Positions 7,465 through 59,464 of a DNA stretch of 64,000 bases are shown here, in pieces. How positions within the stretch are numbered: position 1 is the stretch's first letter; every line of letters begins with the position of its first letter. Under the pieces are notes generated by a model that worked only from the letters and a program-made list of their open reading frames with translations, searched no databases and was not told the DNA's origin. The stretch is from an uncultured Planctomycetota bacterium (GTDB taxonomy: Bacteria > Planctomycetota > Planctomycetia > Gemmatales > Gemmataceae): the NCBI GenBank assembly GCA_963849325.1, contig CAWKHF010000005.1, positions 896,001-960,000 of the forward strand, read 5' to 3'. A program made the translations under genes and the position numbers.

Positions 7465-8460
7465 TCAACTCTCTTCCGGCTCATCGGGGATTGGCGGTTG
7501 GTCGGGTGTTTCGATGGAGCGGGCCATAGTCAGGCACTCGCGTAGGAAACTCTCTAACCACCGTATCTGGCTCACCTTCGACCGCTCGAAGAAATGAATC
7601 GATTCGGAGGCCAATTCAGCACCTCGCCACCAGCGGCAGCGGCCAGGAATCCAATTTTCTTCCCCCAACTCACCTTCGCCGAGACGAGCGGCTGCTTCTG
7701 GGTCAATTCGGCAGCGTGTGCCGAACCAAAGTTCGTCTGGATTCTCGTAGGCCAAACCGAACCAATACTTTTGTCCATCGAGCCGGAGTCCAATGTAATC
7801 CCAACTCGCCGCCCTCTTGGCAGGCACTTTGCAAGCGATGGCGGTTTCGTGAAGCATGTTGAGCATGTTTGCCAATGCCCGAATCCCTTCAGGCATGTAT
7901 TTGCCCACTTGCGTCAGATTCATATTTCTCTCCCTCAAAAAGTCGAGAAACTGTCTTGCCAGAAAGCTGGCAATCTCATTGGCTGCCTCTACCGCAGGCA
8001 ACTCGCTTTCCAGCCAATCGGCAACCTCAAACCAGCGGACTTCGAGATCCGGGCGTGTTTCGTCCGCCTGGAATACCTCCGGGTACTGAGTCAAAAGAAC
8101 AAGCCGGGTCTGTTTCATGCCGGATTCAGCCAACAGCACTCGATATCCCTCTAATTGCCCGGCCCACAGCGGCGATTCCGCTTTCACCTCGATCCAAACC
8201 AAGCGATCTTTGGTGCTGATTTCCAGATCCGGCCGTCCCGAGCCGGTTTCAACTTGGGTGTGGATCTCTATGGCGCTGGCATCTCCCGGTGCCAAATCGA
8301 CAAAGCCACCCGTTAGCCGGCTCACCAATCGCATGCCGACCTCGGGAGCCAAAATCAGCAATTGTTCCAGCACAACCGCCAGCGATTCCGTCAGGAAGTT
8401 CTCATCCTGCCGGGCCGCCCATTTGTGTAATCGCGCGAACAGGTTTGGGCCGCTGGCCAA
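7465..8460 (-). CDS. PD-(D/E)XK nuclease family protein
   Basis: ENFLTE, GRPDLEI...WIEVK, QLEGY; visibly lower GC than neighbours. Confidence 0.8.
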
Positions 8461-8536
8461 GGCTCACTCCCATTCGATCATCTTGGTGAAACGCATGAAA
8501 TCAAGAATTCTCTGATTCCTCGGAGCGGTCGAATGA

Positions 8537-8854
8537 CTATGTTTTTTTACGTCCTGGTTCGCGCAGCAATCGCCGGGCTAATACTTTTTTTATTCTCTGC
8601 CAGCATTCTTCGGTAACAAAGTAGGTCTGAGTTGCGGCGTAACGTTTCCCGTCGGCGGTTTCAAAGATCACCAGCCACCCGTTGGGCCGATCCGACAAGC
8701 GCAGGTCTTGTCGGGAACCCAGATAGCGAAGACGTTCGCCGACACGAAAATGACGGCAGGTGTCCCAGGAAAAGCCCTCCCCATCCGGAGAGGCATGAAA
8801 CGCCTGAATACACACAAACTCCTCGCCGGCCTGGCACTCCAGGATCACGCTCAT
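8537..8854 (-). CDS. Hypothetical protein, candidate immunity partner of the upstream toxin-like ORF
   Basis: 105 aa ORF starting 12 nt after the 8867-9148 ORF ends; role inferred from position. Confidence 0.6.
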   Translation of the reverse strand: MSVILECQAGEEFVCIQAFHASPDGEGFSWDTCRHFRVGERLRYLGSRQDLRLSDRPNGWLVIFETADGKRYAATQTYFVTEECWQRIKKVLARRLLREPGRKKT

Positions 8855-8866
8855 CGTTCGCGCCTT

Positions 8867-9148
8867 TCAGGAAAAGTTGTCCTCGCCATGATGAACGTCG
8901 CCATCCGGCCGAACATTTGTATGAGAACCATTCGGATGCTGCACGTCCCAATGAAAATCCTCTTCGCGTCCGCTGGGATGAGGGTGCGGCACCCACTCAT
9001 TGCCGTTCGCATCCAGATAACCATCCTGCGGGCCACGCGGCGGGTTTCTCAACCAATCATCTCGCTTCGGCGGAACAAACGAGTGCCTGCCCCGCCGCGG
9101 AAGCAACCGCCAGGGGTACTTCGTCGGCCAATCCTCTGCCGAAGCCAT
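8867..9148 (-). CDS. Stand-alone polymorphic-toxin-like domain (Ntox17/Ntox37-like, predicted RNase)
   Basis: LP..GR..FVPP...PRGPQDGYLDANGNEWVP...HWDVQHPNGSHTNV.PDG resembles the remembered Ntox17/37 consensus. Confidence 0.7.
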   Translation of the reverse strand: MASAEDWPTKYPWRLLPRRGRHSFVPPKRDDWLRNPPRGPQDGYLDANGNEWVPHPHPSGREEDFHWDVQHPNGSHTNVRPDGDVHHGEDNFS

Positions 9149-9160
9149 TCGGATTTATCC

Positions 9161-10715
9161 TCATTCCCATTCAATCGTCGCCGGCGGCTTGCTGGTGACA
9201 TCGTAAACGACCCGGTTCACTCCCGCCACCGAGTTGACGATCCGCGCCGACACCTTGCCCAGCAATTCATACGGCAGCTTCGACCAGTCGGCGGTCATGA
9301 AATCGTCCGTCTGCACCACGCGCAGGGCGATGACATTTTCATAGGTCCGGCCGTCGCCCATGACGCCGACGGACTGGATCGGCAACAGCACCGCGAACGC
9401 CTGCGACGTTCTGGCGATACCACCCAGACTGCTTCAATTCGTCGAGCAAAATCGCATCGGCCTGGCGGAGAACGGCGAGACGCTCGGCGGTGACGGGACC
9501 GAGGCAGCGCACGGCCAGGCCGGGACCGGGGAACGGATGCCGATAGACCAGTGCCTCGGGCAGCCCCAGCTCGACGCCGAGGCGGCGCACCTCGTCCTTG
9601 AACAAGTCCTTGAGCGGTTCGATCAGCTCGAAGCCGAGTTCCTTGGGCAGTCCACCGACGTTGTGATGGGTCTTGATGTTGGCGGCGGGACCGTCGGCCG
9701 CGCCGCCGCTCTCGATCACGTCCGGGTAGAGCGTGCCCTGGGCGAGGAAGTGAGCGCCCTCGATGTGGCGCGCCTCGTCCTTGAACACGTCGATGAAAAC
9801 GTGACCGATGCGACGCCGCTTCTCCTGCGGATCGCTGATGCCTTCCAGCGCCTGCAGGAAGCGGGCGCCGGCATCGACGATGTGCAAATCGGCCTGGAAA
9901 TGTCCGGTGAACGTGCGCCGCACCGACTCGACCTCGCCCTGGCGCAGCAGGCCATTATCGACGAAGATGCACGACACCTGCCGGCCAACCGCCCGCAACA
10001 GCAGGGCGGCCGTCACCGACGAATCGACGCCGCCGGACAGGCCGCACAGGACGCGCCGATCGCCGACACGCTCGACCAGCGCCGCCACCGTCTGCGACAG
10101 GAATGAGTCGATCCGCCACAAGCCCTGGCAGCCGCACACGTCGTAGAGAAAATTGCGGAGGATGCGCGTGCCCTGCGGCGTGTGGCTGACCTCGGGATGG
10201 AACTGCAAGCCGTAGACGGGACGAGTGCGATGACGGGTCGCGGCCATCGGACAGGTATCGGTCGCGGCCAGGGACACGAAATCGCCCTGCACCAGCTGTA
10301 CCTGGTCGCCGTGGCTCATCCACACGGTCGTCTCGCTCGGCACACCGGCGAACAATCCGTCGGCGTCGGTGATGCGGCAGACGGCTGGGCCGAACTCGCG
10401 GCTGGGGGCCGACAGAACCTTGCCGCCGAGCAGGTGACAGGCCAGTTGCATGCCGTAGCAGATGCCGAGCACGGGGATGCCGAGGTCGAACAGGCGCGGA
10501 TCGCAGCGCGGCGCCTTGGCGGCGTAGACGCTGGCCGGGCCGCCGGAGAAGATCAGGCCGCGCGGCTTCAACTCGGCGATGCGCTCGGCCGCGAGGTCGT
10601 GGCGGACGATCTGGCAAAAGACGTTCAGCTCGCGGACACGGCGGGCGATGAGCTGGCCGTACTGCGAGCCGAAGTCGAGAATCAGGATCGTTTCATTCTC
10701 AGGCAAAGCAGTCAT
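9161..10715 (-). CDS. guaA: GMP synthase, glutamine-hydrolysing (frameshift near 9410)
   Basis: [58 protein letters not shown]. Confidence 0.98.
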
Positions 10716-10723
10716 GGGACTTC

Positions 10724-11023
10724 TTATTGAAAAAAAGACTCCTGATAGTGGCGAATTTCTTCCGGCGTCGGTTCCGGAGAATCGGCCGAAAATTTGGCGA
10801 ACAGCACGTCCAACAAGGAAGCATCGTCAATGCGTCCGTTACTGCGAAAGCGTTCCACTTCAATTTCGCCATTCTGAAGAAATTCGATCTCCCAATACTC
10901 GCCAGGAACACCGGCCACGACCATGATGGCATCGTCGCGCGAATGTTCCATCGTATAAGAGATCTTCGCTCGATCGAGGCGCTCGAGAAAAGCCAGCAGC
11001 TTGGTGAATTGATCGTCTTTCAT
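10724..11023 (-). CDS. Conserved hypothetical acidic protein, candidate immunity/antitoxin
   Basis: LLAFLERL...IMV...[10 protein letters not shown]...[14 protein letters not shown] overlap with the upstream ORF. Confidence 0.7.
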
Positions 11024-11226
11024 TTGTCAAACCTCTTTGTGTTGAGAAGCTTGTAAATCGTTCGGAATCCCGTCTCTCCTCGTTGCGCTTTTTCCACGAC
11101 CTCTTCCCACGTTAAGGACAGGATGTCACCCCAACTCGGAGAACCGGGACCCAAGGGAGCATATTTGATGCGCGCCTGTTTGCCCTTGAGGATCTCGGCG
11201 ACCGTTTTCCCGGCGTAATCCGCCAT
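11020..11226 (-). CDS. Small basic hypothetical protein, candidate toxin domain
   Basis: 68 aa ending [10 protein letters not shown]; starts 1 nt after the proC stop; coupled to 10724-11023. Confidence 0.65.
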   Translation of the reverse strand: MADYAGKTVAEILKGKQARIKYAPLGPGSPSWGDILSLTWEEVVEKAQRGETGFRTIYKLLNTKRFDK

Positions 11227-11227
11227 C

Positions 11228-12044
11228 TCAAGACTCTCCCAATTCTACCGCTCGCCGCGTGGCCGCCTCAACGGCATCCATCAGGGCTCCTCTCACGCCG
11301 CCGCGCTCCAGGGCGTGCAGACCGGCGATGGTGGTGCCGCCGGGACTGGCCACCATGTCCTTGAGCACGCCCGGATGTGTCCGTGTGTCCAGAACCATTT
11401 TCGCCGCGCCGAGCACCGTCTGCGCCGCCAGCGCCGTCGCCACGTCGCGCGGCAAGCCCACGCGCACGCCGCCGTCGGACAGCGCCTCGATCATCAGGTA
11501 CACGAAGGCCGGCCCACTGCCGGACAAGCCGGTGACGGCGTCGAGCAGGTGCTCGGGCAGCCGAAACGCCACGCCGACGGCGCCCAGCAGCCGATCGACC
11601 AGGGCGACGTCCTCGGCCGTGGCGTTCTCGCCGGGGCTGTAGCCGGACGGCGCTGGCGCCAACCAGGCACGGCGTATTCGGCATGACGCGCACCAGCCGG
11701 CAGTCCGGGCCGAGTCCGTCGGCGAGTTGTCGCAGCGTGATGCCGGCCGCGATGGAGACGACCAGCTGCCCCTTCAGCACCGGACGAATTTCCTCCAGGA
11801 GCGCGGCCATCGATTGCGGCTTGACGGCGAGGACGAGCAACTCGCTGGCGGCGACGACCGCGCGGTTGTCGGCGACGGCGGGGCAGCCGGTCTCGGCGGT
11901 GAATGCCTGGCGAGCCAGCGGCAACGGATCACTGGCGCGGCAGTCCTCGGCGCGCACCAACCCGGCCCGCAGCCAGCCCCGCGCCAGCGCCGTCGCCATG
12001 CGTCCGGCGCCCAGGAAACCAATCCGAGCCATCGCGTCCGCCAT
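11228..12044 (-). CDS. proC: Pyrroline-5-carboxylate reductase (frameshift near 11650)
   Basis: [41 protein letters not shown]. Confidence 0.97.
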
Positions 12045-12145
12045 GTCCCGCCGGTCCTCACCTCGGGAGAGAAGCCATCATCATACTGAAAGAGAGAGGT
12101 TGGCGTAAATCCGGATAGGATGTACCGGGGAGTCATTGGCGACGT

Positions 12146-12565
12146 TCAGGCGTCGGCCCAGTTCTCCAGTTGCAGCCCCGGCACCAGGCGAAAGTGGCGC
12201 AGATTGCGGGTGACGAGTGTTGCTCGGTGTGCCAAGGCGATGGCGGCGATGAGCAGGTCGGCGCGACCGATTTTCTTGAGTTTCTTGTCCTGCCGCAAGC
12301 GGTCGAATTCAGCGGCAGATGCGGCATCGATGGAGATGGTGTCGAACTCGTTCAGGTTTTGCTCGGCTTCTTGCAGCAACTGCTGGGCACGTTCCAGTTG
12401 TGCCCCGTCGGCGGCCTTGAGCAGGAAATCCCACCGCCCCCGAAGAACCTCGATTCGGGAAACAATGGTTATGGCGATCAGGTCCGTTGTTGCCAGGGCA
12501 CGCGCCGCCACTCGGGGATGAGCGTGGATAAGCAGCGTCACGGTATCGGTATCGAGGAGGATCAT
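12146..12565 (-). CDS. vapC: PIN-domain VapC-type toxin
   Basis: ILLDTD...E...DLLIAAIALAHRATLVTRNLRHF..VPGL.LENW. Confidence 0.93.
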   Translation of the reverse strand: MILLDTDTVTLLIHAHPRVAARALATTDLIAITIVSRIEVLRGRWDFLLKAADGAQLERAQQLLQEAEQNLNEFDTISIDAASAAEFDRLRQDKKLKKIGRADLLIAAIALAHRATLVTRNLRHFRLVPGLQLENWADA

Positions 12566-12933
12566 TCACCTTCCTCGGTCATCGGCCGACCGCGTTGCCG
12601 ATAAATCTCCTTGAGGAACTCATCAAGGTCCGGATGGTCCTTCCAGGCGCCGATCACGGACAGGATAGCTTCTTTGCTTGATTTCCGCGGCGGCGTGCGC
12701 AGCCAATCTTGCAACGCGGACTTCAAGAATCGCCATTCGCCGCCGATCCGTCGGCCCGGGATGCCGTCGCGGCCAATCATCCCCCGCAGATCGGCTTCCG
12801 CCACGCGCAGATACGCCGCCACCTCAGCCAGCGTCAACACTTCGCTGGACGTATCCGGAGGGGGAGGCGCCATCGGCGGAGACGGTGGCTGGGAAGGTTT
12901 CGTTGGACTCGGTTTCGCTTTCGTTCGCGGCAT
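12562..12933 (-). CDS. Putative antitoxin with excisionase-like HTH (HTH_17)
   Basis: EVLTLAEVAAYLRV...IPGRRIGGEWRF; own RBS (aaggaagg) and ATG at 12933; ATGA overlap with vapC. Confidence 0.85.
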   Translation of the reverse strand: MPRTKAKPSPTKPSQPPSPPMAPPPPDTSSEVLTLAEVAAYLRVAEADLRGMIGRDGIPGRRIGGEWRFLKSALQDWLRTPPRKSSKEAILSVIGAWKDHPDLDEFLKEIYRQRGRPMTEEGE

Positions 12934-12962
12934 GATCGTTCCTTCCTTTCCGGGAAATCTCT

Positions 12963-14540
12963 TTAACTCGCCGCGGCCGGCTCGCGCGGCGGCGCCTCGG
13001 TCGAGTGGATGCGCTGCTCGGCGGCCATCCGCAGGGCGATGCGGTTGATGACCTGCAAGAACGCCAGGGCGCTGGCCTCGATGATGTCGGTGCTCACGGC
13101 CCGGCCGTTGATGACGCTTGCCGTTGTACTCGGCCTCGATGTGGGCCTCGCCCTGGGCGTCCTCGCCGACCGTCACGCTGCGAATGCGGTAATCGCGCAG
13201 CTTCACCTCGATGCCGGTGATCTGCTCGATGGCCTTGAACACCGCATCGACCGGCCCGTCGCCGAGGCTGGCCTGGCGGACGATGGTGCCGTCCTGGTGC
13301 CACAGGCACACCGCCGCCGACGGGATCGTCGCCGAGCCGGCGTTGCACGTCACCGCCTCCAGCGTCCACAGCGTCGGGCCGCTGTGGATCTGCGCCTCGG
13401 CCAGCGCCTCAACGTCGGCGTCGTAAATCACCTTTTTGCGATCGGCCAACGCCTTGAAGCCGTCGAAGACCTTCTGCAACTGCTCTTCGTTGAGGTGATA
13501 GCCCAGGTCGAGGACGCGCTGGCGCAGGGCGTGCCGGCCGCTGTGCTTGCCCAGCACCAACTCCGTCTGCGCCACGCCGACGTCCTCGGGGTTCATGATC
13601 TCGTAGGTGGTCCGCTCCTTGAGCATGCCGTCCTGGTGGATGCCCGCTTCGTGGGCGAAGGCGTTCTGGCCGACGATGGCCTTGTTGCGCTGCACCTGGA
13701 TGCCGGTGACGTGCGACACCAGCCGGCTCGTCGGGTACAGCTTCTTGGTGTTGATGTGCGTCGTGACCTGGAAGTAATCCTGCCGCGTGCGCACGGCCAT
13801 GACGACCTCTTCGAGGGCGCAGTTGCCGGCGCGTTCGCCGAGGCCGTTGATGGTGCATTCGACCTGGCGGGCGCCCTCGGCGATGGCGGCGAGGCTGTTG
13901 GCCACGGCCATGCCGAGGTCGTTGTGGCAGTGGACGCTGATGATCGCCTTGTCGATGCCGCGGACGTGCTTCTTGAGGTGGGCGATGGCGGCGGCGTACT
14001 GGCTCGGGCACCGCGTAGCCGACCGTGTCGGGGATGTTCACCGTCGTCGCGCCGGCCTCGATGGCGCGCTCGACCACTTCGGTCGAGGAAATCCAGTTCG
14101 GTGCGGGCGGCGTCCTCCGGCGAGAACTCGACGTCGTCGCAGTAGCCGCGGCGCGCTGGACGCCCTCGACGGCGCGGCGGATGATCTCTTCCTTGGCCAT
14201 CTTGAGCTTGAATTCGCGGTGGATGGCGCTGGTGGCGAGGAAGACGTGGATGCGCGGCCGGGCGCAGTCGCGCAGGGCTTCGCCGGCGCGGTCGATGTCG
14301 GCGGCGTTGCAGCGGGCCAGGCCGCAGATGATCGGCCCCTCGACCTCGCGGGCGATGGCCTGCACCGCCTCGAAGTCGCCCGGCGAGGCGATGGGGAAGC
14401 CGGCCTCGATGACGTCCACGCCGAGATCCTTGAGGGCGTGCGCCACCTGGAGCTTCTCGGCCAGGTTCATGCTGGCGCCCGGGCGATTGCTCGCCGTCGC
14501 GCAGCGTCGTGTCGAAGATGATCAGGCGGTCGTCGGTCAT
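12963..14540 (-). CDS. leuA: 2-isopropylmalate synthase (several indels)
   Basis: IFDTTLRDGEQSPG, IEAGFP, NIPDTVG, GERAGN, NAFAHEAGIHQDG, LGKHSGR, GDGPVDA; true-frame stop TAA at 12965-12963. Confidence 0.96.
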
Positions 14541-14555
14541 GGTCGGACTCCGGCG

Positions 14556-14589
14556 AAGAAAAAAGCCCTGGGATTTCCGTCCCAGGGCT
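14556..14589 (-). terminator. Attenuator (intrinsic terminator) upstream of leuA
   Basis: Minus strand AGCCCTGGGA-cggaaa-TCCCAGGGCT followed by a T-run, ending about 15 nt before the leuA ATG. Confidence 0.9.
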
Positions 14590-14628
14590 GTGCTCAGCAA
14601 GCGCGAAGGAAACACCGGCTGGAGGCGC

Positions 14629-14691
14629 CTAGGACCCGTCTCCGCGAAGGAGAAGCGTGTCGAGCAGGCTGAAAAGTAGCTGAGTCGTCAT
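14629..14691 (-). CDS. Leu-rich leader peptide MTTQLLFSLLDTLLLRGDGS (leuL-like)
   Basis: 20 codons with 7 Leu (CTA CTT, CTG CTC, CTT CTC CTT), directly before the terminator and leuA. Confidence 0.85.
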   Translation of the reverse strand: MTTQLLFSLLDTLLLRGDGS

Positions 14692-14750
14692 GGCGGTGTC
14701 GGAAGGGCGAGGGCGTTCCGCTGTTGGTGCGCAAGAAAACCTTAGCAGAT

Positions 14751-14779
14751 AGTGTAGGGGTTCCAGGCGAGGAAGGCAA
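14751..14779 (-). promoter_or_regulatory. sigma70-type promoter for the leu leader and leuA
   Basis: TTGCCT (14779-14774), 17-nt spacer, TACACT (14756-14751). Confidence 0.6.
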
Positions 14780-14806
14780 CGGCTCTTTTGTCTTTACCCG
14801 CTTGCT

Positions 14807-16314
14807 GGGTGGGCAGCTGTTACTTGGGTGGGTTTTTGGCTTGTCGCGCGATAGGTTGACTCCCAGGTCCAAAACGCACACGCCTTCTTCACACTCAGGA
14901 GTTGCATCATGGCTTCCCAGCACGGTCCTTCCCCAGTGGCCCCATCCCGCCAAGAACGCATCGAAGCCATCCTGCAACAGCTGCGACCCCAGATCGAACA
15001 GACCGTTCGCCAGCTTGTCGAAAGGGCCGTCGATGTTCCCGAGGCGGAGGAATTCGGCGCCATCGACTTCGAGTTCCGCGATGCCGGGCAGAAGCTGGTC
15101 AACCACGTCCGGCAAGCCAGCGTGGCGAGCCGGAAAAAAAGGGCTACGTAGGCTCCAGCGTACGCTGCACCTTGTGCGGGCACACGGCCAAGTTTCATTC
15201 CTACCAGTCCCGGCGGCTGTTGACCGTGCATGGCGAGGTGCGTCTGGAGTGCGCCTATTACTACTGTGCCCGCTGCCACCACAGTTGCATCCCCTACGAC
15301 GAGGTACTGGGCTTGCACGATGCCATCAGCCCCGGCTTGCGGCCGCTGGTCTGTCTGGCCGGGACGATGGTGCCCTTCGGCGATGCGTCCGAAGACATCC
15401 TCCGGCGTTTCTCCGGAGTGCGTCTGTCGGCTTCCTCGGTATTGCGCTGTACCCAAGGGGAGGGCGAACGCTTGCGGGCGCAGCAGAAAGCGGGGCCGAT
15501 GGTCGAGCCGACGCAGCCCGAACTCCTCTGGACCGCACCGCGAAGGGAAGGGCAGCCCGCGGCCTATGTCGGCCTGGACGCCTTCAGCGTGCCGATGCAG
15601 GGGATCGGAGCAGGCAAGGCCGAGCATCGCATGCTCTACACCGCGTTGTTGTACACGCCGCAAAAGGAGCACAGCCGCTACCTGGTCGATTTCGACCTCG
15701 ATGTGCTGGCGGAGCAAGTGCGCGCGCAGGCCCGGGCGTTGGGCGTTACGCGGGTGAGTGACTTGATCGCCGTGACCGACGGCGGCAACGGCCTGGAAGA
15801 AGCCTTGCAGCGTCACCTGGCCGAGAACCTGACGACTATCCTGGATTGGTATCACGCCGCCGAACACCTCTGTGCCTTCGCCAACGTCTGGCATGCCGGC
15901 GAGGAAACGGCCCGCGTGCTGTGGCAGCAGCAGGCCAAAGGAATCCTCTATGAGCAAGGGGGCGAAGCCTTGCTCACCTTTTTGCGGGCGTTGGACTTGC
16001 CGCCGGAGACATCGGCAGAGGTTCACGAGGAACTGCGGAAGCTGATCGGCTACTTCGAGAACAACCGGCATCGCACCGATTATCCGCGCTATCGTCAGAA
16101 GGGCTGGGACATCGGCAGTGGGCCGACGGAGGCGGGCTGCAAGATCATCGGTGAAAGGCTCAAGGGTTCGGGCATGCGCTGGGTAGAAGACGGTGCGGCG
16201 ACCGTGGCGGCCCTACGGGCTTTATATGTCAGTGGCGGCAAGGTGTGGGACGGCTTCTGGTCGCAGCCTCACCGCGCCGCCGCGTAAAGTCACCCAAGTA
16301 AATGATTCACACCC
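14807..16314 (+). mobile_element. Insertion sequence, ISKra4-like, 1508 bp
   Basis: IRL GGGTGGGCAGCTGTTACTTGGGTG vs reverse-complemented IRR GGGTGTGAATCATTTACTTGGGTG (19/24); direct repeat CCGCTTGCT at 14798-14806 and 16315-16323. Confidence 0.92.
14909..16287 (+). CDS. ISKra4-family DDE transposase in two ORFs joined by a -1 shift at A7G (15134-15141)
   Basis: CxxC...YYYCxxC, DGGNG, ILDWYHAAEHL, YF.NN..R.DY..YR..GW.IGSG..EAGCK.I...RLK.SGMRW. Confidence 0.9.
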
Positions 16315-59023: not shown

Positions 59024-59246
59024 ATACCTGTCAGCATCGAGGCGTTGGGGATCGACCGGCTCAGTGTCCGGGAGCGGCTGGAATTGATCGAGCAGATCTG
59101 GGATAGTTTGCCCGAAGACGTGAATCCCGATGAGGTGCCGCCGTGGCACCTGGCAGAACTCGCCAAGCGGCGCAGAGGCCGACGCCTCTCCGGGAGTAGG
59201 CAAGCCGTGGCGCGAGTCCCTGGCGCGGTTCGGGAACGGATCATGA
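59024..59246 (+). pseudogene. Addiction-module antitoxin (TIGR02574-like); start reads ATA, frameshift near 59175
   Basis: SD aggagg then ATA CCT GTC...; LSVRERLELIEQIWDSL...W...EL.KR...PW. Confidence 0.75.
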
Positions 59247-59464
59247 ATTTACCTGTGATCCTTCGGCCTTCGGCCGACGCTGACATCCAGGCGACCCACG
59301 ACGAACTGGAACAGTTGCAAGCCGGCCTGGGTATTCGTTTCGTAGCCCGCGTGCGGGAGGTGCTGGATCGCATCGAAGGGATGCCCATGCTGTACGGTCT
59401 GGTATGGCAGGATGTACGGGCGGCGCGGCTGCGGAGGCAACCGGCACTCGGTCGGTTGGGATGA
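59243..59464 (+). pseudogene. RelE/ParE-family toxin, C-terminally truncated
   Basis: VILRPSADADI......E....GLG.RF...V...L.RI..MP......DVR.A.LRR; the usual FPY...Y...V..V.H tail is missing. Confidence 0.75.

Follow-up and report, generated by a model that had tools for sequence, protein, structure and literature searches.

What is a pair of small, overlapping genes doing between two core genes of a planctomycete? The question is raised by a 64,000-nucleotide (nt) stretch of DNA from an uncultured bacterium of the Gemmataceae (GenBank assembly GCA_963849325.1, contig CAWKHF010000005.1, positions 896,001 to 960,000 of the forward strand), which was analyzed as a whole and is called the window below; all positions are counted from its first nucleotide. 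Between proC and guaA, the minus strand carries a gene for a basic protein of 68 amino acids (aa), followed directly by a gene for an acidic protein of 99 aa. The analysis points to a cognate toxin/antidote module of a family that is not described in the libraries searched, a reading to which we assign a probability of roughly 0.72. The 68-aa and 99-aa genes are therefore referred to by their predicted roles, as toxin and immunity gene. Three lines of evidence carry this reading: the 68-aa domain recurs at the C-terminal end of large weapon-type proteins, the two families occur next to each other in a constant order across phyla, and the toxin gene decays while the immunity gene stays intact.

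Two overlapping genes of opposite charge lie between proC and guaA

The toxin gene (11020..11226) and the immunity gene (10724..11023) are both encoded on the minus strand and both begin with ATG. They share the four nucleotides ATGA at 11020..11023, where the toxin stop codon TGA (11022-11020) lies over the immunity start codon (11023-11021), an arrangement that implies translational coupling of the two genes. The stop codon of the upstream gene (11230-11228) is separated from the toxin ATG (11226-11224) by a single nucleotide, and 8 nt lie between the immunity stop codon (10726-10724) and the start codon of the downstream gene (10715-10713). Pfam identified these flanking genes as proC (11228..12044, minus strand; F420_oxidored and P5CR_dimer, in the overlapping frames 11268..12044 and 11228..11662) and guaA (9161..10715, minus strand; GATase and GMP_synt_C, in the frames 9339..10715 and 9161..9391). 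The 68-aa protein has an isoelectric point of 9.57 and a net charge of +3.5, the 99-aa protein an isoelectric point of 4.50 and a net charge of -10.3. An initial annotation, made from the DNA letters alone, had singled out the overlap, the opposite charges, the gaps of 1 and 8 nt and two motifs, KLL...RF.K at the end of the 68-aa protein and VPGE.WE.EF in the 99-aa protein, and all of these were recovered here.

Each start codon is preceded by a Shine-Dalgarno-like run. The sequence AAGAGG (11032..11037, minus strand) lies 8 nt 5' of the immunity ATG, within the codons for the conserved K-R-F of the toxin, and GGGAGAG (11234..11240, minus strand) lies 7 nt 5' of the toxin ATG, within the last codons of proC; both runs are putative ribosome-binding sites. 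A sigma-70-like site (TTGAGG-18-TAGAAT, 11271..11242, minus strand) was also seen within the 3'-terminal part of proC, a short distance before the toxin start codon; such sites occur at chance level in the region (two found, 1.0 expected).

Profiles of the two families, described below, matched the 68-aa and 99-aa proteins with expectation values (E) of 4e-33 and 3.5e-46 and nothing else in the window, which holds a single copy of each gene. Because these matches are specific and the rate of nonsynonymous substitution (dN) is far below that of synonymous substitution (dS) in orthologues, we regard both open reading frames (ORFs) as real genes and not as chance ORFs. ORFs on the opposite strand or in alternative frames over the pair (e.g. 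10727..11056, plus strand) had no profile or orthologue support. The G+C content of the pair is 51% versus 65% in the window, and G+C at third codon positions is 0.62 and 0.56 in the two genes versus 0.84-0.86 in guaA and proC. No flanking direct or inverted repeats that would suggest a mobile cassette were found around the pair, and Rfam gave no match in window positions 8000-15000. As judged from its sequence, the 99-aa protein has neither a signal peptide nor a hydrophobic N-terminus and is presumably cytoplasmic.

The 68-aa domain forms the C-terminal end of larger proteins

A profile of six sequences, comprising the window protein and five relatives of similar length from a word-based search, was run against 1.84 billion cluster representatives. 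It recovered 294 protein clusters at E<=0.001, including 213 at E<=1e-10. Position and architecture were analyzed in the best 150 of these 294 matches, 85 of which are at least 140 aa long. In 142 of the 150 proteins the complete domain, which measures about 62-66 residues, ends no more than five residues from the C-terminus; the other eight are truncated matches, and none is internal. Among the 85 longer proteins, Pfam detected RHS_repeat or TEN_YD-shell in 15, PT-HINT in eight, eCIS_core (of extracellular contractile injection systems, eCIS) in one and WXG100 in one, and one further protein is a read-through from proC. Neither LXG domains nor the filamentous haemagglutinin domains of contact-dependent inhibition (CDI) proteins were found by Pfam in any of the 85. 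The early suggestion that the domain might sit at the C-termini of Rhs, LXG or CDI proteins thus held for Rhs and found no counterpart for the other two classes.

An independent word-based search limited to long proteins yielded 43 matches, with the JGI name 'RHS repeat-associated protein' on ten, PF07591 on 13 and PF05593 or PF25023 on eight. In the HINT proteins the toxin domain begins a few residues past the 'VHN.C' motif at the HINT C-terminus, and in the Rhs proteins it begins 27-98 aa past the last DPxGL motif. This places the 68-aa domain in the payload position of polymorphic toxins. The linkers between DPxGL and the toxin domain are variable and often hydrophobic or rich in Gly/Ala (P0132, P0222, P0127, P0217, P0187, P0107, P0207, P0147); they may represent a membrane-entry segment.

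In an alignment of 151 domains, the residues V9, L13, K14, K16, K/R17, G18, S19, I20, A23, L25, G28, P30, W32 (98%), A47, G53, K59, L60, L61, R65 and F66 are near-invariant. They describe a basic surface on a scaffold defined by glycines and a proline, and no conserved histidine or set of acidic residues was seen among the 151 domains.

The two families occur together in a constant order

The word-based search found 64 clusters for the 99-aa family, and a genome scan seeded with an alignment of this family yielded 323 confirmed matches. The locus counts given in the following rest on the best 80 of these 323 matches, those closest to the window, in which both families were searched with profiles in all six frames. 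The 80 loci comprise 14 from Planctomycetota, 41 from Cyanobacteria, ten from Chloroflexota and 15 from other groups, including Blastocatellia, Desulfobulbaceae, Competibacteraceae, Binatia, Elusimicrobia and Actinomycetes. All 66 matches to the toxin profile in these loci were located directly upstream of the 99-aa gene and on the same strand. The loci contain 81 copies of the 99-aa gene, 78 of which have at least 210 nt of DNA upstream. The toxin domain was present directly upstream of 60 of these 78 copies, whole in 49 and broken or truncated in 11 (split in two in five, truncated in six), and was absent from the remaining 18. The same 4-nt ATGA junction was found in 47 of the 49 whole pairs. 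The 99-aa protein had been predicted to belong to a conserved family of no known function that accompanies the 68-aa domain; both parts of this prediction were borne out, the first by the number of clusters and loci and the lack of any match in Pfam, NCBIfam or PADLOC, the second by the shared order and junction.

One locus carries a fused toxin. In a metagenome-assembled genome of Elusimicrobia (L051), an ORF of 1223 codons ends in the toxin domain and is followed by the 99-aa gene with an ATGA overlap; its N-terminal part gave only a sub-threshold match to Trypsin_2. This is the only fused toxin among the 80 loci, and the near absence of fusions is explained by the scan, which started from the 99-aa family and retained those matches that were nearest to the window. 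A different arrangement was seen in a Gemmataceae locus (L006, 5438-6195), where the order is proC-immunity-toxin-immunity-guaA, so that the antidote gene is duplicated around one toxin gene.

The polar residues H27, S28, R29, E45, E57, R58, R60 and S61 are conserved in the 99-aa family. Co-folding of the two proteins, run without controls, gave scores of 0.09 and 0.23 (mark, 0.32), which we count neither for nor against binding.

The toxin gene decays while the immunity gene is kept

The conserved core of the 99-aa protein was encoded in one uninterrupted ORF in 79 of the 81 copies, and the toxin was broken, truncated or missing in 29 of the 78 copies with sufficient upstream DNA. Inspection by eye revealed that seven of the 18 loci counted as lacking the toxin still retain its last codons (e.g. 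...RRFDK-stop) just upstream of the 99-aa gene, and in all seven except L054 these residual codons stand directly before the 99-aa start. Loss of the toxin from beside an intact 99-aa gene is expected for a poison and its antidote and speaks against reversed roles.

In the window the toxin seems to have escaped this decay. Its dN/dS ratio was 0.07-0.35 against six usable orthologues, the median for the toxin gene was 0.16 (20 usable of 36 pairs) and that for the immunity gene 0.25 (51 usable of 78 pairs), all of them rough values since dS is saturated in most pairs. By these ratios, the window toxin is under purifying selection, and with its ATG, its Shine-Dalgarno-like site and the low dN/dS the pair looks functional.

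The position of the module is shared within Planctomycetota. The gene directly downstream was guaA in 13 of the 14 Planctomycetota loci and the gene directly upstream proC in 11, with the order proC-toxin-immunity-guaA or proC-immunity-guaA in 11 loci; two loci of the Gemmataceae type (L014 and L022) show proC-immunity-guaA and no toxin. These loci were chosen by the presence of the immunity gene, so the counts describe its surroundings and not the frequency of the module across Gemmataceae. The shared place between proC and guaA implies that the position was inherited and not recently acquired. A recent insertion of the pair was considered and rejected, as its G+C content follows that of the host across loci (r = 0.93), staying a few points lower, and its position is syntenic within Planctomycetota.

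Neither protein matches a described family or structure

Searches of Pfam, NCBIfam and PADLOC assigned no family to either window protein; the only row returned was DUF6055 at E 0.17, and Pfam gave no family for the 68-aa protein at E<=10. When 35 members of the toxin family were scanned at E<=1, 13 unrelated families appeared with one or two members each, none of them a toxin family (best E 0.00098). Pfam contained no DNA-binding family that matched the 68-aa protein. A segment of Topoisom_bac (Pfam, profile positions 54-117) was weakly matched by ten of the 64 members of the 99-aa family, including P0060 and P0063, over residues ~30-91. The best of these matches reached E 0.0031 and 17 bits against a cut-off of 35.1 and is probably due to chance; a genuine match would suggest that the 99-aa protein mimics the target of the toxin.

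Structure-based comparisons gave a similar picture. A sequence-profile search of the PDB returned no credible match for the toxin (best hit ribosomal protein L11, E ~0.6) and only designed repeat proteins, at chance level or of low complexity, for the 99-aa family. AlphaFold2 modelled the toxin as all-helical, with five short helices (mean per-residue confidence, pLDDT, 84), and the 99-aa protein as a helix, four strands and two helices (alpha-beta4-alpha-alpha; pLDDT 81). At E<=0.001, Foldseek found no match for the toxin model in PDB or BFVD and none for the 99-aa model in PDB. The ESM Atlas returned only 'hypothetical protein' clusters for the 99-aa protein and nothing usable for the toxin. 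A tblastn search of both proteins against plasmid and phage collections yielded no match, and a text search of the literature with short motifs of the toxin domain retrieved no relevant paper. Across Pfam, NCBIfam, PADLOC and PDB, no described toxin-antitoxin (TA), Ntox or Imm family therefore corresponds to the pair, as the initial annotation had supposed. Its description of the pair as previously uncharacterised agrees with the family libraries and literature searched; the nine toxin domains PT1-PT9, discussed below, were compared by description only.

Most whole toxin copies appear to start at a non-AUG codon

The 49 whole toxin copies fall into two main groups by their apparent start. In 11 copies an ATG is found eight codons before the conserved Val, as in the window. 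In 35 copies ATC (27), ATT (5) or ATA (3), together written ATH, stands two codons before the His (or its replacement) of a ..HKF.. motif and ~200 nt upstream of the match to the 99-aa family (loci L009, L016-L018, L020, L021, L023, L025, L027, L031-L033, L035, L039-L043, L045, L047, L052, L055-L058, L060, L062-L065, L070, L071, L074, L078 and L080). The remaining three are the fused copy of L051, one copy with GTC at the ATH position and one that was left unclassified. The ATG group consists of Planctomycetota and Chloroflexota, and the ATH group is mostly cyanobacterial.

A GGAGG-like run was present 4-18 nt upstream of the ATH codon in 35 of 35 copies, counted with a permissive pattern and without a shuffled control, and an upstream stop codon often stands immediately before this run. 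In 28 of the 35 copies the ORF contains no ATG, GTG or TTG upstream of the ..HKF.. motif. The residue encoded at the ATH position varies across the family, which points to a constraint on the start codon rather than on the amino acid. These features suggest that the ATH copies initiate at a weak non-AUG codon and that this is conserved. Weak initiation of this kind would hold toxin output low, and a non-AUG start would account for gene callers missing or misplacing the starts of these toxin genes.

A model for the module and the alternatives

According to the model that we propose, the 68-aa toxin would be a free-standing copy of a domain that serves elsewhere as the detachable payload of RHS/YD, pretoxin-HINT, eCIS and WXG100-type proteins, and the acidic 99-aa protein would be its dedicated antidote. 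The two would form a chromosomal, toxin-first and type-II-like TA pair co-transcribed with proC and guaA, in which the ATGA coupling would cause the antidote to be made whenever the toxin is. The antidote might in addition guard against the same toxin delivered by neighbours. Since the toxin is bare, with a start of its own and no delivery part, it should be made inside the cell, and since the antidote carries neither a signal peptide nor a hydrophobic N-terminus, the cytoplasm should be the toxin's place of action. Neutralisation by direct 1:1 binding in the cytoplasm is a step that we consider somewhat more probable than not. For the toxin itself, binding to a conserved polyanionic target in the cytoplasm (nucleic acid, or the translation or DNA machinery) is favoured over catalysis because the family conserves near-invariant Lys/Arg, one Trp and structural Gly/Pro residues and no catalytic set of His or acidic residues; this proposal is tentative, and the odds are against it being correct in this form. 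Still more doubtful is the model in its fullest version, in which a structurally novel, non-catalytic and polyanion-binding toxin of ~62 residues crosses phyla both as a payload (Rhs, HINT, eCIS, type VII) and as a TA module in a housekeeping operon, with its dose limited in cyanobacteria and several other phyla by a conserved AUC, AUU or AUA start behind a strong Shine-Dalgarno sequence.

Several points weigh against the reading as a cognate toxin/antidote module. Toxicity and neutralisation are predicted from sequence. No Pfam domain was recognised N-terminal of the toxin domain in 59 of the 85 longer proteins, many of which probably come from short contigs. Pairing was measured as a toxin preceding the immunity gene and not as this immunity gene following a toxin, and many of the 80 loci are closely related, with more than a dozen Microcoleus species among them, so that the counts are not independent events. 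The saturation of dS makes the dN/dS ratios rough. No DNA-binding domain (helix-turn-helix (HTH), ribbon-helix-helix or AbrB) was found in the 99-aa protein and its 63 relatives in Pfam or NCBIfam even at E<=1, and the retention of the antidote without a toxin in 29 of 78 copies fits a role in immunity at least as well as pure addiction. The window toxin deviates at three positions that are usually conserved (G18 to A, S19 to R and D63 to T) and has no HK[YF] motif, which in many fused and cyanobacterial copies stands before the domain; because of these changes it may be an attenuated or milder variant.

The last points lead to the alternative that comes closest, namely that the module is kept mainly for the protection that the 99-aa protein gives against toxins delivered by Rhs or HINT proteins, the toxin gene being a tolerated or decaying passenger. 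The contrast between 79 of 81 intact immunity genes and 29 of 78 damaged or missing toxins, the two Gemmataceae-type loci that have only the immunity gene between proC and guaA and the wide distribution of the domain on delivery proteins all agree with this view, as does the proposal that a possible use of orphan immunity proteins is defence against incoming effectors (available text of PMC10539506). However, a passenger would not be expected to keep a whole reading frame in 49 of 78 copies and the ATGA junction in 47 of those 49 across phyla, and in the window the toxin is intact, with its own ATG, a Shine-Dalgarno-like site and dN/dS of 0.07-0.35. We therefore consider protection as the main reason for the module unlikely, though it is the most plausible of the alternatives. 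Much less plausible is a silent, displaced cassette of C-terminal toxin and immunity gene, as found downstream of rhs or cdiA genes, that would serve as a reservoir for recombination. That many copies outside the planctomycetes have no canonical start codon, as orphan fragments do, would be in line with such a cassette, but the ATH codon behind a Shine-Dalgarno-like run in all 35 of these copies argues for translation and not for silence. Furthermore, the pair is flanked by proC and guaA, Pfam found neither Rhs nor YD nor CdiA domains in the 64 other ORFs of the 64-kb window, the toxin gene begins with ATG exactly at the domain boundary and carries no stretch of conserved Rhs core, and synteny of the position extends over 11 Planctomycetota loci.

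An exchange of roles, or roles unrelated to toxicity, with the 99-aa protein as toxin or enzyme and the 68-aa protein as a helical regulator, antitoxin or adaptor, would restore the canonical antitoxin-toxin order, in which a small basic helical protein comes first, and would give a meaning to the strikingly conserved polar residues of the 99-aa family (H27 to S61, listed above). Yet behind the RHS core and PT-HINT the payload is the 68-aa domain and not the 99-aa protein, decay affects the 68-aa gene and leaves the 99-aa gene intact, and the 68-aa protein matches no DNA-binding family in Pfam. The 99-aa protein is, moreover, strongly acidic, and inhibitors of basic toxins often are. This exchange is the least credible of the explanations considered, and the cognate module with the 68-aa protein as the toxin and the 99-aa protein as its antidote is the reading that we retain.

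Comparison with known systems

Among type II TA modules, higBA, hicAB and mqsRA are arranged with the toxin gene first. The pair resembles them in having two small, overlapping and co-oriented genes with the toxin upstream, and in combining a basic toxin with an acidic partner. It differs from them in that no sequence or fold match was found in Pfam, NCBIfam, PADLOC or PDB and in that no DNA-binding domain can be recognised in the 99-aa partner. Measured against type II TA modules in general, the genes are thus small, adjacent, co-oriented and overlapping, whereas an antitoxin with a DNA-binding domain and a match to a described family are missing.

With polymorphic toxin systems, the pair shares a domain that closes the protein after RHS repeats, PT-HINT, eCIS_core or WXG100, and a small conserved gene that comes next on the same strand. 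Unlike those systems, neither protein has a Pfam Ntox, Tox or Imm match, the window copy has no delivery or repeat part, and the domain is unusually small and lacks a conserved His/acidic set. Pfam found no Rhs, type VI secretion, eCIS or haemagglutinin domains in the 64 other ORFs of the window, i.e. no candidate delivery genes. Standalone toxin cassettes have been described among polymorphic toxin systems (Zhang et al. 2012, PMC3482391), and none of the all-alpha toxin families in that source showed a comparable motif in the 12 of 17 table places that were compared. The features of an orphan rhs/cdi cassette are not present in the window either, as there is no full-length rhs or cdiA upstream and the toxin has its own ATG.

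A functional precedent is provided by Salmonella Typhimurium, for which the available text reports an orphan Rhs toxin/immunity pair that acts as a type II TA module (PMC7043789). It likewise combines an Rhs-type toxin that has no delivery part with an immunity gene. Nine short C-terminal toxin domains outside Pfam (PT1-9) have been validated, and they were tested also as single-domain genes (Nachmias et al., 10.1101/2021.10.19.465003). From the portion of that report at hand, PT5 comes from Microcoleaceae, PT6 is fused to an eCIS marker, and structures were solved for PT1 and PT7. The PT1-PT9 toxins with their PIM immunity proteins and the present pair have in common short C-terminal toxin domains without a Pfam family, which also exist as genes of a single domain beside an immunity gene in synteny. 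Unlike PT1 and PT7, the 68-aa protein has no PDB match, in a comparison with PT1-PT9 that rests on their description and not on their sequences; the 68-aa domain may be one of the nine.

Other toxin-type genes and frame breaks in the window

Further toxin-type genes were observed around the pair. A 93-aa ORF (8867..9148, minus strand) that begins 12 nt after guaA matches Pfam Ntox17 (E 4e-12) and Ntox37, and 12 nt past it follows a 105-aa ORF (8537..8854, minus strand) without a family. The two appear to be a second polymorphic-toxin domain in bare form, accompanied by its probable immunity gene. In L002 the two genes are again found after guaA, and L004 has only the 105-aa gene of the two. 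This pair (8537-9148) is like the 68-aa/99-aa pair in consisting of a bare toxin domain and a small downstream partner on the same strand; its toxin belongs to a described Pfam family, unlike the 68-aa protein, and is unrelated to it in sequence.

Between leuA and proC, the region 12146-12940 contains an ORF with a PIN domain (12146..12565, minus strand). It is preceded by an HTH_17 segment that shares its frame with the broken leuA end (ORF 12562..13911, residues 358-405) and overlaps the PIN start by ATGA. The two look like a VapBC-like pair, which was not seen in the related Planctomycetota loci. On this strand, leuA, proC and guaA are thus interleaved with three toxin-type pairs. At a distance from these genes, Pfam assigned a 139-aa ORF on the plus strand (59045-59461) to Unstab_antitox ('putative addiction module component'; E 6e-10), which makes it a further gene of the TA type.

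Each of the three core genes guaA (9161-10715), proC (11228-12044) and leuA (12562-14470) is broken up into two ORFs that overlap and differ in frame. In L001, the two parts of proC lie in one frame, and so do the two parts of guaA. Three single-base frame breaks within ~5 kb of core genes point to indel errors in the assembly rather than to real pseudogenes, and the small ORFs of the window should be read with probable indel errors in mind.

Implications

The evidence supports the view that the pair belongs to a well-known kind of system, that of toxin and immunity protein, and that what is new is the family, which is missing from the libraries searched; our confidence in the detailed mechanism is far lower than that in the cognate pair. 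If the reading is true, a widespread toxin-immunity family is added, with 294 clusters of the toxin (at 50% identity) and 323 genomic loci of the immunity gene, the latter spanning Planctomycetota, Cyanobacteria, Chloroflexota, Acidobacteriota, Proteobacteria, Actinomycetes and other groups. Such a toxin would be exceptionally small, without obvious catalytic residues and without a relative of solved structure, and its target could reveal a new way to stop bacterial growth. The apparent non-AUG starts, if true, would provide a natural example of a toxin whose dose is set by the choice of start codon. One domain would have two uses, as the payload of a contact weapon and as a TA-like chromosomal module that has long been kept in a housekeeping operon.

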